A DNA stretch of 64,000 nt, taken from a virus (taxonomy: Duplodnaviria > Caudoviricetes). Location of the stretch: the IMG/VR virus record IMGVR_UViG_3300029955_000001. The stretch is one strand, 5' to 3'. Positions 12,014-18,190 of the stretch are shown here, one piece after another. The first letter of the stretch is position 1, and each line of letters opens with the position of its first letter. A program made the position numbers and the translations under genes. Under the pieces are notes generated by a model. It saw only the letters and a program-made list of their open reading frames with translations. It was not told the origin of the DNA and did not search any database.

Positions 12014-12300
12014 TTATTCTGGCATAGTGTCTATTTTATACCCCATGAATTCTGCGTATTCACGTATCGTTGATACAAATAACTTAATGTCGATTTTATC
12101 TCCATTTATTGGCCATCTAGTGGCAGCGAAGAAGTTAGCCACGATAAAACTTACAGCTTCATCACTCCCCGTGTCATTTGCCCCCCCCCCCACATTCCTA
12201 TCCAAAGATAGTCTTGTGGGTAGAGCTGAAGTATCTTAGAAAGCTGTTGTTCGGTAAGAATGATACCACTAATCTCTTTGATCTTATCTTTGACCCAGTT
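12014..12300 (-). pseudogene. hypothetical gene frameshifted at a G11 run (probable assembly error)
   Basis: upstream frame ...WIGMWG joins the ANDTGSDE frame only if the G run at 12181-12191 has 6, 9 or 12 bases; 5' boundary approximate. Confidence 0.45.
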
Positions 12301-12460
12301 GAACGTATCGTACGTTTGATGCATACCAACAATTTATAGTAATTTCATCATACGTTCTTTATGCATCTTCATGACCGTATTACAGTTGTCACTTGCAAAA
12401 CGCTTCGGATCACTTACAAGATATTTAGGTTCTATGATCAACATGCTATTTTCCTTTATT

Positions 12461-13214: not shown

Positions 13215-13409
13215 CTATTTTCCTTTTTTCTCTTTGTAAATACCAAATGTTCGTAGATCTTGTTTAGCAATTTTTCGATCTTCTAGTATTACGTGTGTTG
13301 ATGTAGTTTCAATAAATTTACTGATAATAATTTCATCACTACTATAAAGCGTAACGCGTACGCGTTTTCCACGTTTACAACTAGTGTGGGAAGTTTTATG
13401 TTTTAACAT
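13215..13409 (-). CDS. hypothetical basic protein
   Basis: 64-aa ORF with AAGGAG RBS; first gene downstream of the dual-repeat array. Confidence 0.65.
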   Translation of the reverse strand: MLKHKTSHTSCKRGKRVRVTLYSSDEIIISKFIETTSTHVILEDRKIAKQDLRTFGIYKEKKGK

Positions 13410-13550
13410 TATTCTCCTTTATGATTATTAGTAAATTTATGGATGAGGAATGCTCTACCCTCACTCCTCTCCAATTGATACACTATGTTAAACTGTTGAG
13501 AGTCCGGTATCCTTAGGTCTCAACTTTTACTACTTGTCACTTCATATCGT

Positions 13551-15485
13551 TGGTTTACTATCTTTAACTGATTCACTTTTAACTCATGGTTTACTTTACC
13601 AGATTGATTCACTTCACTCCCTTGGTTTACTAAGACGAATTGATTCACTTATTGCTATTGGTTTTATTCGTGGTTCTGATACACTTAAACACATTGGTTT
13701 ACTAAACCTATTTGATTCACTACCCCGCTACGATACACTTGTTGGGTTTGGTTTACTATCTTGATTTGATGCACTAATTGGATCTGGTTTGCTTACGTTC
13801 ATTGACACGCTAATTAATTCTGGTTTACTAGTTCGTAATGACACACTTCGCCAGCTTGGTTTACTACACGTTAATGATACACTACGATGGCTTGGGTTTA
13901 TTTGCATTTCTGATACACTAGAGCACAACGGATTACTTTTATTGATTGATTCACTAACAACCATTGGTTTACTGTTAAGCTTTGATTCACTAATTAATAT
14001 TGGTTTACTGCCTTTCATTGATTCACTGCGGTGGGTTGGTTTACTGTCGAACGTTGATACACTATGCTTCCATGGTTTACTATACATTACTGATAAACTT
14101 ACAGGAGATGGTTTACTTATTTAGTTCGATACACTGGATACCAATGGTTTACTGTTGATTGGCGATACACTAATACCTGTTGGTTTACTTCTGTTTTATG
14201 ATTCAATCGTCGGGCTTGGTTTACTATCGTGTAATGATACACTTTTGACTAATGGTTTGCTAAATCAACTTGATACACTAACCCGCTATGGTTTACTGTT
14301 GATTGGTGACGCACTTCAGTATGTTGGTTTACTAACGGTCATTGATTCACTTTTAACTCATGGACTACTTGCGCATGCCGATACACTTCGTTACATTGAG
14401 TTACTAAAAATATGTGATACAATAAACTCCAATGGATTACTTCCCCATTTTGATACACTTTGCTGACTTGGTTTACTATGTTTCAACGATTAACTAGGTC
14501 TATCTGGTTTACTGTTTTTCACTGATGCGTTACGTAGCTTGGTTTACTTTCCTATTCTGACTCACTGTGCTCCTATGGATTACTTACACATGCTGATTCA
14601 CTACAGGTTAGTGGTTTACTTTGGCTGATTGATACACTAACGTATTATGGTTTACTTAACACCGCTGATACACTTAAACAGATTGGTTTACTTTGCCTTC
14701 TTGATTCAGTTGTTGAGTTTGGTTTACTAACGAATTTTGATTCACTTCAGTCGCATGGTTTACTGCCAGGCTTTGATACACTACGCTGCAATGGTTTACT
14801 TATGTCCCTTGACACACTGTTGCTTCTTGGATTACTTTATACCCGTTGATACACTGGTCTTAACTGGTTTACTCTGGTTCATTGATACACTTACTGTCTT
14901 CGGTTTACTATAACCTTCTGATACACTGTTATAAAACGAGTTAATTATCATCATTGATACTTTAGGTCATTTTGGTTTACTTTTGTTGTTTGATTCGCTA
15001 CTGTCTTCTGGTTTACTTTCTAGTTATGGCACACTAACTACCCATGAGTTACTGAAATTAATTGATACACTATTTCTTCTTGGTTTACTTCTTCGTTGTG
15101 ATACATTGACTTCCCGTGAGTTACTGACCGGAATTGATACACTAGTTCGACTTGGTTTACTGGATAACATTGATACACTTAAGAAGATTGGATTACTATT
15201 GGAATATGATTCACTAGAACTTTATGGTTTACTTGAACGCATTGATACACTACGATGCAGCGGTTTACATGTTTTTGTTGATACACTAATACCTGTTGGT
15301 TTACTACTTAATGTTGACACACTAACATCCCTTGAGTTACTCGTGCACGATGATACACTTAATATTCGTGGTTTACTGATTCATTCCGATTCACTATACA
15401 ACACTGGTTTACTTGTGCACCTTGATACACTACGCTCCTATGGTTTACTATCAAGTATTGATACACTAGTATCTTTTGGTTTACT
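13551..15485 (-). repeat. TIGR-like dual-repeat array: 108 alternating 9-nt repeats and 107 variable ~9-nt spacers (36-nt unit)
   Basis: plus strand TGGTTTACT-N9-TGAT(A/T)CACT-N9 (minus strand AGTAAACCA-N9-AGTG(T/A)ATCA-N9); 1935 bp = 107x18+9; stop codons and indels in every repeat-register frame. Confidence 0.9.
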
Positions 15486-15544
15486 AAGACACTACGACGT
15501 AAAAAGGAGCATAACTCCTAAGTAGTATTTAAATTCATTAGCTA

Positions 15545-15581
15545 CTCACTTAAGTGATATATGACTATATTTGTTTTGAAT
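15545..15581 (-). promoter_or_regulatory. promoter-like motif directly upstream of the dual-repeat array
   Basis: CTCAC-TTAAGT-GATATATGACT-ATATTTGTTTTGAAT aligns gaplessly with CTCAC-TATAAG-GATATATGTCT-AAAATTTTTTGGAAT at 24324-24360. Confidence 0.65.
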
Positions 15582-15582
15582 A

Positions 15583-15631
15583 TAAAAAAAAAATAGGGCA
15601 TAAATAGATGGATTATTTCTAATCCATCTAT
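15583..15631 (-). terminator. intrinsic terminator
   Basis: ATAGATGGATTA/TAATCCATCTAT hairpin with a nearby A-run (U-tract on minus); separates the tRNA/Y-RNA transcript from the array. Confidence 0.5.
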
Positions 15632-16011
15632 TCAATATTTCGATGAAACGAATGTTATTAAACTAGTGTATTAGTCACCAGCCGGAGATTCCAACATCCA
15701 ACAAACCTCCTCTTTTACTGCTTCGTTTTTAATGTATTCAATTCCGGCATTCTAATTGGAAACCAATCAGACAAAAGTGGAGTTGAAATTTCAGTAAACT
15801 AATGTCTACCTAGATTTTATTTAATCTCATCCCATGTAGCAGGAGTCTTGATCACAGTTAAAATCAGACTGTTTAAAACATAGTTGGGTCATGGAGACTG
15901 ACCAACATCACGCGTAATCCCCTGAGGCTTATTCCCCTCACAAGTAATCTCCCAGCCTATTTCTAAGCTTAGCGTCATCATTGGCTGACACAATTATCTA
16001 CTACCAATTAA

Positions 16012-16106: not shown

Positions 16107-16270
16107 TTGAACACAATACGACAAGATTGACAAGATAGCGAGATTGCTCCCAGCGCTCTATCCAGCTGAGCTACCTAAATCTCATTTCTGAAATATAGAG
16201 TAGGAATCGAACCTACGACCTCTTCATTAACAGTGTATGTAATCTTTATCTGCATTCGTAAAGCATTCAA
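16107..16270 (-). ncRNA. Y-RNA-like unit 13 (permuted tRNA cargo: T-arm, closed acceptor, D-arm)
   Basis: CGAAUGCAG...UUACA 5' arm and CUUGUC 3' arm; cargo GUAGGUUCGAUUCCUAC then UAGCUCAGCUGGAUAGAGC. Confidence 0.8.
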
Positions 16271-16277
16271 AACTCTG

Positions 16278-16400
16278 ACCTGACAAAATTAATAAGATAT
16301 TTTATAAACTCTTTCGAGTCTATTCCTTGGATTTGAACCAAGTAACTACAGGATTATTCATCCCTCGTATTTGCCCATGTAATATTATTGGCATTCAGGT
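16278..16400 (-). ncRNA. Y-RNA-like unit 12 (T-arm cargo)
   Basis: UGAAUGCC...UUACA / UUUGUC, closing stem CCUGA/UCAGG; CUUGGUUCAAAUCCAAG T-arm. Confidence 0.7.
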
Positions 16401-16414
16401 GTAAACTTTAAAAA

Positions 16415-16515
16415 CTATTGGTGACAAGTGTTGTTAAGAAACGGTACTGCTGGGCGAAGAAAGGGAGTCGAAACTCCCGCATCTCTGCGATGTAATCTTA
16501 ACTGCATTCACCGTA
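16415..16515 (-). ncRNA. Y-RNA-like unit 11
   Basis: UGAAUGCAG...UUACA / CACUUGUC, closing stem GGUGA/UCACC; GGGAG-UUUCGA-CUCCC hairpin. Confidence 0.72.
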
Positions 16516-16523
16516 AACTCGAT

Positions 16524-16653
16524 TGATCACTTCATGACAATTGTTGATGAAATTTCAGCAGTTTCCTGCTCCGCTGGTCATTGCTAGGAACTCTAACCTA
16601 ACTACCTCTCACGGCTTTTCAATGTAATTCCATCTGCATTCATGTTGTAATCA
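16524..16653 (-). ncRNA. Y-RNA-like unit 10
   Basis: UGAAUGCAG...UUACA / AUUGUC, closing stem CAUGA/UCAUG. Confidence 0.7.
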
Positions 16654-16660
16654 AAACCTT

Positions 16661-16735
16661 TGGCAGACCGTATGGGTTTCGATCCCATCTAACCACCTTG
16701 AAAGGGTGATGACCTCACCAGAAGTCGAACGGTCC
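16661..16735 (-). tRNA. tRNA-Glu(UUC), embedded in the Y-RNA array
   Basis: GGACCGT/ACGGTCT acceptor, TCACC-CTTTCAA-GGTGG anticodon arm, atypical T-loop ATCGAAA, encoded CCA. Confidence 0.88.
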
Positions 16736-16744
16736 ATAAAACAC

Positions 16745-16846
16745 TTTCCGACAAGTTAAGTAAAGATAGCCTTTCGGCATGGCGAAATATCAGATGTTTC
16801 CATCCAATAGCTTGGCTCGCAATGTAATCCTTACAGCATTCGGAAT
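16745..16846 (-). ncRNA. Y-RNA-like unit 9
   Basis: CGAAUGCUG...UUACA / ACUUGUC, closing stem UUCCGA/UCGGAA. Confidence 0.72.
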
Positions 16847-16855
16847 AAAACTTTA

Positions 16856-16930
16856 GAGTACTGAATGACAAAATCAATATTGACGTAAATATTCGTAATA
16901 TGTAATCAATACAGCATTCAGTCAGCACTC
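16856..16930 (-). ncRNA. Y-RNA-like unit 8 (minimal, 75 nt)
   Basis: UGAAUGCUG...UUACA / UUUGUC, closing stem GAGUGCUGA/UCAGUACUC. Confidence 0.7.
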
Positions 16931-16939
16931 GTAACTTGA

Positions 16940-17089
16940 TTGAGTCGTAACGACAAGAATTAATAAATCAAGGGTTTCCCCTAGCTAGCGTTCTAACCAA
17001 CTGAACTACAACTCTTTTCAGAATTGACTGGAATCGAACCAGCGACCTCTTGCCTGACTGTAGATTTATCAGCATTCATTACAACTCAA
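16940..17089 (-). ncRNA. Y-RNA-like unit 7 (YrlA-type permuted tRNA cargo)
   Basis: 14-bp closing stem UUGAGUUGUAAUGA/UCGUUACGACUCAA; T-arm GCUGGUUCGAUUCCAGU, acceptor CAAUUCU-GAAA-AGAGUUG, D-arm UAGUUCAGUUGGUUAGAAC. Confidence 0.85.
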
Positions 17090-17141
17090 AACCGGTATCC
17101 GCACATTAGTGATATGTACAATTGAAACTTTAATTAAATCA

Positions 17142-17290
17142 GATGTTTCGTAACAAGTAATAAGTAAAACATGATTGTAGACCTGAGGGAGTGAGCCTCA
17201 GTGCGTTGCCGTCACGCTGTCCCTCACTTACGAGAGGTATGGGGTCGAACCATATCACTTATGTAGTTTTACTCGCATTTACAAACCATC
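17142..17290 (-). ncRNA. Y-RNA-like unit 6 (permuted tRNA cargo plus extra hairpin)
   Basis: AAAUGCGAG...CUACA / ACUUGUU; T-arm UAUGG-UUCGACC-CCAUA, closed acceptor, D-like arm, CUGAGG-CUCACUC-CCUCAG. Confidence 0.75.
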
Positions 17291-17302
17291 CAAATCTTTG
17301 CA

Positions 17303-17453
17303 TGAAACAATTACCAAGCAGACTATGACAAGGGATAGCTAAGAAGTGTCCTTTCGAACTTTTCCCCCATAAGGTATCTATAAGTAACAGAAATAACTTA
17401 TGGGGGAAAATGTAATCCTAACTGCATTCGCAGAAAGCTTGGTAATTGTTTCA
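17303..17453 (-). ncRNA. Y-RNA-like unit 5 (long-hairpin cargo)
   Basis: 17-bp perfect closing repeat TGAAACAATTACCAAGC; CGAAUGCAG...UUACA / CUUGUC; internal 14-bp UUUUCCCCCAUAAG hairpin. Confidence 0.78.
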
Positions 17454-17459
17454 AACTAT

Positions 17460-17614
17460 TTTTGAGTTATTCGACAAGTGGGAATGAATTAACGCGGTTA
17501 CCCGCCAGCTGTCCTATAATTAGACGAGATCCTCATGGGATTACAAGATTAGCCGAAGCACGCTTGTATTCGCTGATTGAAAGTGTAAATTCATCTGCAT
17601 TCGAAATACTCAAA
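17460..17614 (-). ncRNA. Y-RNA-like unit 4
   Basis: CGAAUGCAG...UUUACA / CACUUGUCG, closing stem UUUUGAGU/ACUCAAAA. Confidence 0.75.
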
Positions 17615-17781
17615 ACTTTTACTACTACATAGGTTGATCACAACCGACTTTACGGATATTACTTCTACACCAACAAGCACCGCTTTTAAACGGGATGTAA
17701 TTGAGGTTAGGTACAGGTATTAACTGCAAACCCTTCCTACGAATTTTACGTGACCACAACTCTTTACTACTACAATTTAAA

Positions 17782-17933
17782 TAAGTGCGTATAACAAGTG
17801 TATTAACAAAACATAACAAGACTGAAGTTTCCTCCAGCGCGTCTACCAGTTTCGCCACATCCCTGTAAACAGGAACGATAGGATTCGAACCTATACCCTA
17901 AATGTAGTTTTGTCTGCATTTACACAACACTTA
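17782..17933 (-). ncRNA. Y-RNA-like unit 3 (YrlA-type permuted tRNA cargo)
   Basis: AAAUGCAG...CUACA / CACUUGUU; T-arm AUAGGUUCGAAUCCUAU, acceptor CGUUCCUG-UUUA-CAGGGAUG, D-arm UGGCGAAACUGGUAGACGC. Confidence 0.8.
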
Positions 17934-17940
17934 AACTTGA

Positions 17941-18098
17941 TTGAAAGCGTTATAACAAGTATCAACAAAAAACAATACTAATGCTTTATCAGAGGGATTT
18001 GAACCCCATCTTTTTACCTTATGGCAAAACGCTTTTACCGGACATAAGCTATGAACCACAAAAGAACTAATCTTCATTTGCATTTATAACGCTTTCAA
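17941..18098 (-). ncRNA. Y-RNA-like unit 2 (tRNA cargo in normal D-anticodon-T order)
   Basis: 15-bp perfect closing repeat TTGAAAGCGTTATAA; AAAUGCA / ACUUGUU; D-like arm, hairpin, GGGG-UUCAAAU-CCC. Confidence 0.75.
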
Positions 18099-18105
18099 AA
18101 ACATT

Positions 18106-18190
18106 ATATTTAAACACATTATGACAAGTGTATCGCTGATATCCAGTTAGTGTATGTAATCAGTGAAGCATTCGTAACATGTTTAAATAT
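18106..18190 (-). ncRNA. Y-RNA-like unit 1 (minimal, 85 nt)
   Basis: 16-bp closing stem whose two mismatches are G-U pairs only on the minus strand; CGAAUGC...UUACA / CACUUGUC. Confidence 0.8.

Follow-up and report, generated by a model that had tools for sequence, protein, structure and literature searches.

A very large dual-repeat TIGR array of the TasA clade, detached from tas, in an uncultivated jumbo phage of peat and permafrost

TIGR-Tas systems were first described in 2025, and both their natural role and their targets are still open. Published surveys seek TIGR arrays around tas genes, and no mention of remote or orphan arrays was found in the literature searched. A 64,000-nt stretch of DNA from an uncultivated jumbo phage of peat and permafrost (IMG/VR record IMGVR_UViG_3300029955_000001; the whole stretch is called the window here) raises the question of what to make of an array that has the look of a TIGR array and yet no recognisable Tas gene at its side: to which family does it belong, and which protein would use its guides? 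(The size class of the phage follows from one gene of the array locus, which is recorded on a 287,693-bp contig.)

Anatomy and family of the array

The array contains 108 full 9-nt repeats on the minus strand. They start at 15485, end at 13551 and follow one another every 18 nt, alternating between a loop-type repeat, AGUAAACCA, and an edge-type repeat, AGUG(U/A)AUCA. At the 3' end, a last spacer is followed by a truncated 109th repeat of the edge type, AGTGACAAG, at 13541-13533 (Table 1). The loop-type repeat AGTAAACCA is present in 37 exact copies and the edge-type repeat in 21 (AGTGTATCA) and 11 (AGTGAATCA); the other repeats show 1-3 base differences. In each repeat type, 8 of the 9 positions carry 1.1-2.0 bits of information, and the U/A position in the edge repeat carries 0.68 bits; the spacers, whose G+C content is 37.2% (window, 37.6%), stay at ~0-0.45 bits. 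A 45-nt pattern of three repeats occurs 11 times in the window, compared with 0.00 times in shuffles. The spacers are 9 nt long in 104 of 108 cases, 8 nt in two and 10 nt in two, and 105 of the 108 are unique. Two edge-type repeats are consecutive at 13739/13721, a phase slip outside of which the alternation is kept. This re-parse bears out the two alternating 9-nt repeats, the minus strand and the 108 full repeats given in the preliminary description, together with its mostly unique spacers; the alternation that it called strict has the one slip, and where it counted a single 8-nt and a single 10-nt spacer there are two of each.

No open reading frame spans the whole array (the longest has 180 aa on the plus strand and 119 aa on the minus strand), all frames have stops, and the off-length (8- or 10-nt) spacers change the reading frame yet preserve the register of the repeats, in agreement with the nucleotide-level constraint already proposed for this tract. 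Three independent assemblies, L125, L126 and L128, read through the array with 100% identity, and for this reason it is not an assembly artefact; it was detected in peat and permafrost runs from 2018 to 2025. Given the degenerate repeats and the phase slip, part of it may be non-functional. Three half-spacers, ACAGGTATT, CCAATCAAC and TGAGTTAAA, are each present twice (at 15305/14189, 14315/14171 and 14369/13595, respectively, on the minus strand) with a different partner spacer each time, a pattern that points to recombination between units.

Table 1. Features of the array locus and of detached arrays in other TasA phages (positions refer to the window unless a locus is named)
Feature	Position	Strand	Details
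Dual-repeat TIGR array	13533..15485	minus	~53 complete 36-nt units and a degenerate first unit; homologous arrays adjoin tasA genes
Hairpin and U-run, like an intrinsic terminator	15584..15634	minus	15-bp stem 15634-15601; fold z -3.6 for 171-nt stretch
Phage promoter-like motif	15545..15581	minus	core CATATATCAC at 15563-15554
6-bp hairpin, then U5	15505..15519	minus	terminator-like scan and fold; between promoter-like motif and first repeat
Two modest hairpins after array	13440..13524	minus	13524-13495 and 13473-13440; no U-run; z -1.5, not significant
Gene for 64-aa basic protein	13215..13409	minus	directly downstream of array; no Pfam match
Homologue of the 142-aa gene after tasA in L019 (L019:10843-11271)	12017..12324	minus	split by frameshift near 12181
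Ro60 gene	18258-19931		Pfam vWA_Ro60 and TROVE
Secondary arrays away from tas	G018:C1:2200-2600; G009:C1:53300-53420; G013:C1:28700-28760		one on opposite strand

By the published definition (Faure et al. 2025; PMC12045711), a TIGR array is built from two alternating repeats of 8-12 nt and spacers of 9 nt. Box D opens each repeat and box C (CCA) closes it; the loop repeat carries a tetraloop rich in A, and one additional pair that covaries marks the edge repeat. The window array has this dual-repeat anatomy, with its 36-nt unit, its 108 repeats of 9 nt and its 9-nt spacers in 104/108 positions. Both of its repeats start with AG, the loop repeat ending in CCA and the edge repeat in UCA. The loop repeat, AG-UAAA-CCA, combines a G2-C7 pair with an A-rich tetraloop, and the edge repeat can form G2.U7 and U3-A6 pairs, the second of which appears as C3-G6 in AGCGUGUCA inside the window. 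Across more than 80 TasA loci, positions 2-7 (G-C, G.U, A-U) and 3-6 (C-G, U-A) of the edge repeat covary as published, and the loop repeat retains G2-C7.

Eighty IMG/VR reference loci were fetched, and each was oriented by its tas gene. The arrays of these loci have loop repeats of the form AG-NNNN-CCA and edge repeats of the form AGCGAGCCA, AGCGAGUCA, AACGAGUCA or AGUGWAUCA. In every oriented locus the array runs in the direction of tas. This sets the strand of the window array as minus and also settles which of its repeats is edge and which is loop. The repeats of TasR arrays are UG...CCA (PMC12045711), so that the window array differs from them both in box D (AG rather than UG) and at the end of the edge repeat (UCA rather than CCA). 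The AG start had been a source of doubt in the preliminary description; however, the AG...CCA/UCA form is found in the tasA-adjacent arrays of more than 80 loci, where it is the norm.

Pattern scans recovered these repeats from two contigs of IMG/VR and from 14 metagenome contigs. They lie directly beside a tasA gene of 289-450 aa in L004/G001 (406 aa), L002/G002 (289 aa), L019 (450 aa), L012 and L016. Bona fide tasA genes thus have identical repeats at their side in L004, L019 and L002, which removes the new branch of guide system that had been entertained for this array. The TasA gene family comprises 4,221 representative clusters, and its profile matches the solved TasR (9MTY) at E 3.3e-21 and TasH at E 2.4e-12. 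In addition, the TasA clade has an invariant C-terminal Y276/H285, which in the alignment falls on the TasH C-terminal tail; a preprint locates a Y/H processing dyad in that tail, and the two TasA residues may correspond to it. Taken together, these comparisons identify the window array as a dual-repeat TIGR array of the nuclease-free TasA clade, a member of a known family and not a new guide system, and the TIGR-type reading that had been made from the letters alone stands.

What is unusual about the array is its very large size and its detachment from tasA; its sequence family is ordinary TasA-type. It resembles the dual-repeat TIGR-TasA systems (for example FpTIGR of Flavonifractor plautii; PMC12045711; 10.64898/2026.09.09.750476) in its 36-nt unit with alternating 9-nt repeats and two 9-nt spacers, in the box D/box C ends, the A-rich loop repeat and the paired edge repeat, and in its phage setting. 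Unlike them, it has no tas within 64 kb, its likely partner being ~195 kb away, and its 54 units compare with 'most often 5 to 15' in TIGR arrays (PMC12045711) and with a mean of ~16 per dual-repeat array (65,635/4,126). With TIGR-TasR (9MTY) and TIGR-TasH (Salicola phage CGphi29) it shares the tigRNA architecture and a partner family that has a Nop-type RNA-binding domain. However, the partner clade of the window array has neither RuvC nor HNH, so that DNA binding or repression would be expected here and not cleavage.

Outside of the TIGR family, a Rfam search of the array gave no family match even at E up to 1. A CRISPR array was rejected, since it would have one repeat of ~25-36 nt in place of two different 9-nt repeats with 9-nt spacers. 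A box C/D sRNA was rejected as well, because the repeats carry no RUGAUGA and CUGA K-turn boxes; the array further differs from archaeal and eukaryotic box C/D guide RNAs in being a tandem array of 9-nt repeats, in having DNA as the predicted target, and in having no methyltransferase partner. In one respect the locus is comparable to orphan or remote CRISPR arrays that are served in trans, in that a guide array with its own promoter-like motif lies far from the putative effector gene, although the two systems are unrelated and the TIGR system has 9-nt repeats, dual-spacer guides and a Nop-domain effector. TIGR systems are not known to have adaptation machinery.

Absence of tas from the window and the surroundings of the array

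In most of the 80 reference loci the array lies within ~100 nt of tas, an adjacency that is not seen in the window. A TasA HMM made from 120 close homologues detected no Tas in the six-frame translation of the 64-kb window (best E 0.056), a broader TasA HMM made from 150 representatives with <50% mutual identity likewise detected none (best E 0.27), and tblastn of the window with two Tas proteins was negative. A tas gene is accordingly lacking in the 13.5 kb downstream and the 48.5 kb upstream of the array, which extends to the whole window an absence previously reported for the immediate neighbours. (It should be noted that the Pfam Nop model, PF01798, is unusable as a test for Tas, because it gives no match on the related contig G001 although Tas is present there.)

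A sequence word-index look-up leads beyond the window. The Tas of L019 has 5 of 180 words in common with one stretch of this phage genome, which lies ~181 kb before the window; for the Tas of G001, that stretch was the top match, with 8 of 180 words. Moderate evidence of this kind places a putative cognate tasA ~195 kb from the array in the same genome. The distal tas rests on the word-index match, and the gene could be broken; when a distal Tas was sought by motif among 380 retrieved homologues, none fitted. The array, which had been called an orphan, is one within the window but probably not within its genome, and the trans-acting option raised at the same time becomes the better reading, given the Tas look-alike in the same genome.

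Other loci offer points of comparison. Two of the genes that flank the array in the window, the 64-aa gene and one of ~140 aa, also occur in L019, yet the tasA of L019 comes directly after the array there and occupies the place where the window has other small genes. In other TasA phages, secondary arrays lie 5-14 kb from tas (G018, with 12 units, G009 and G013; Table 1), and these provide a small-scale precedent for detachment. The Ro60-related jumbo phages G003-G007 contain neither Tas nor array, and megablast of the 10 kb around the array gave no match among deposited phages.

Upstream of the array, the terminator-like hairpin closes the upstream tRNA/Y-RNA transcription unit, and the promoter-like motif lies just behind it, which is the arrangement that the preliminary description had recognised. 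A second copy of the motif (CATATATAAC) is present in the window at 24269 on the minus strand, and in the related contig G001 the near-identical TAGTCATATATAAC precedes tas and the variant AACCATATATAAC precedes the array. In three runs, the assembly graphs fork and the contigs depart from the window sequence precisely at the two edges of the motif (15545/15582), which marks it as a repeat dispersed in the genome; that it acts as a promoter is a prediction. The small hairpin with its U5 comes after the motif and ahead of the first repeat; it may serve as a leader structure or an attenuator, and it might terminate transcription before the array is reached. On the other side, the fold of 13440..13524 revealed no canonical terminator 3' of the array, and therefore read-through into the next genes is possible; in the relative G001, a clear terminator follows the array.

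The 64-aa gene has homologues at L019:5706-5921 (46-47% identity) and at L086:2800-2976 (33% identity), the latter immediately upstream of tas. A jackhmmer search gave only these three members, and a large protein search with the 64-aa protein found only itself. Across ~830 kb of loci the gene is thus restricted to three unrelated contigs, each time near a TIGR locus; a homologue is present in only 2 of ~90 tas loci examined, and the gene could be either an accessory gene or a lineage marker. Farther downstream, the gene at 12017..12324 falls into two overlapping frames; at 12181 one base is missing from DNA run X7, and the frameshift is consequently either polymorphic or an assembly error. 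Among nine neighbouring ORFs, Pfam recognised only Ro60 and gave no match for the downstream genes.

Several sub-threshold matches to YrlA-type Y RNA lie between Ro60 and the array (window 16150-18190, minus strand; best 45.3 bits, E 5e-8), with tRNA-Thr and tRNA-Glu interleaved. This context of Y RNA, tRNA and Ro60 puts the TIGR array at the end of a non-coding-RNA island. A permuted tmRNA (RF04321) has a sub-threshold match at 21846-22303 on the minus strand (40.4 bits against a gathering threshold of 47, E 8.6e-6), which adjoins tRNA-Ser and tRNA-Met. Positions 20000-21400 (minus strand likely) give rise to by far the most abundant RNA of the region in three metatranscriptomes, where its contigs of 1.36-1.65 kb have a depth of 160-550 compared with ~5 in neighbouring genes; this RNA has no long ORF, and Rfam returned only a chance-level match at E 0.2.

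Parts of the array itself are present in six metatranscriptome runs. In the three metatranscriptomes that were mapped to the window, its depth is 0.5-9, similar to that of neighbouring genes, and the depth reaches 44-105 in the tRNA/Y-RNA region and 160-550 in the region of 20.0-21.0 kb. The array RNA consists of assembled contigs at low depth that carry no strand information and for which DNA carry-over is possible; these contigs establish that the array is present in RNA libraries, without strand, ends or processing.

Competing readings and a proposed mechanism

The analysis establishes the anatomy, family and strand of the array, shows that the window lacks tas, and finds the sequence stable from sample to sample. 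It is unlikely that the array is a relic, or a true orphan, that once had a tasA neighbour like that of L019 and has been left as a decaying or inert tract after the partner was lost. Such a history would account for 64 kb without tas, for an L019 tasA that sits exactly at the place of the other small genes in the window, for the 1-3 changes seen in about a third of the repeats, for the phase slip and the four off-length spacers, and for the frameshift in a neighbouring gene. However, conservation of the repeats remains high (37 loop repeats are exact, and most positions carry 1.1-2 bits). A promoter motif of its own precedes the array, RNA libraries contain it, independent samples give one and the same sequence, runs from 2018 through 2025 include it, and a Tas look-alike is present in its genome.

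The possibility that a different, unrecognised effector encoded nearby (by the downstream genes of 64, 98 or 128 aa) serves the array, which would then be a new branch, has very little to commend it: the repeats are identical to those of canonical TasA loci, so a known partner suffices. The downstream genes are all without a Pfam match, which leaves room for such an effector, but these small proteins have no similarity to Tas or Nop; the 64-aa gene does recur near the TIGR loci of L019 and L086, but its homologue is confined to those 2 among the ~90 tas loci. It is more improbable still that the tract is not a guide array at all but a protein-coding repeat of 6 residues, a set of protein-binding DNA sites or a plus-strand RNA, a reading to which the 18-nt period, being a multiple of 3, and the 180-aa plus-strand ORF would lend themselves. 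Only the 9-nt repeats are conserved, the spacers carrying next to no information, and the RNA pairs covary. A coding repeat was rejected because there are stops in all frames and the off-length spacers break the frame while the repeat register is kept; a plus-strand RNA was rejected because homologous arrays are attached to tasA and run in the same direction.

We therefore favour, as probable, the reading in which a genuine TasA-clade array with its own promoter-like motif is loaded in trans by a distal TasA for DNA binding and repression. The transcription start, processing, trans partnership and repressive outcome that we infer would fit together as follows. Minus-strand transcription from the phage promoter-like motif of the array would yield a precursor of ~2 kb. 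With no tas adjacent to the array, the distal TasA probably processes this precursor into 36-nt dual-spacer guides and loads them; in particular, the guides would be taken up in trans by a dimer of the nuclease-free TasA, apparently encoded ~195 kb away in the same genome. The TasA complexes would then bind 18-bp DNA sites, with one spacer for each strand, and block transcription or other DNA transactions at targets in the host, in competing phages or in the phage itself. Binding and repression are the expected outcome because TasA lacks a nuclease and because a TasA has been shown to repress transcription in a guide-dependent (RNA-guided) manner (preprint 10.64898/2026.09.09.750476).

Candidate targets were sought with both possible half-site geometries and both unit registers, using partner-shuffled guides as the control. 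The window contains no match with 2 or fewer mismatches, and its matches with 3 or fewer are at control level, as are the counts in 829 kb of other loci; adjacent opposite-strand matches of paired spacers, which the preliminary description had proposed to look for, are thus at background in both. The large natural guide set of this one phage is good material for finding TasA targets.

A wider reading can be offered tentatively, at somewhat less than even likelihood: the phage would keep its main guide repertoire in a detached super-array with its own promoter, within a non-coding-RNA island that also holds tRNAs, Y RNAs with Ro60 and a tmRNA-like RNA, ~195 kb from tasA. If the array is indeed served from such a distance, then TIGR arrays can work in trans across a whole jumbo genome, and guides can be encoded apart from their effector, as happens in CRISPR. 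The recurring 64-aa gene beside the array might in that case be a TIGR accessory factor. Surveys anchored on tas would miss a class of remote arrays, and current catalogues would undercount the guides.
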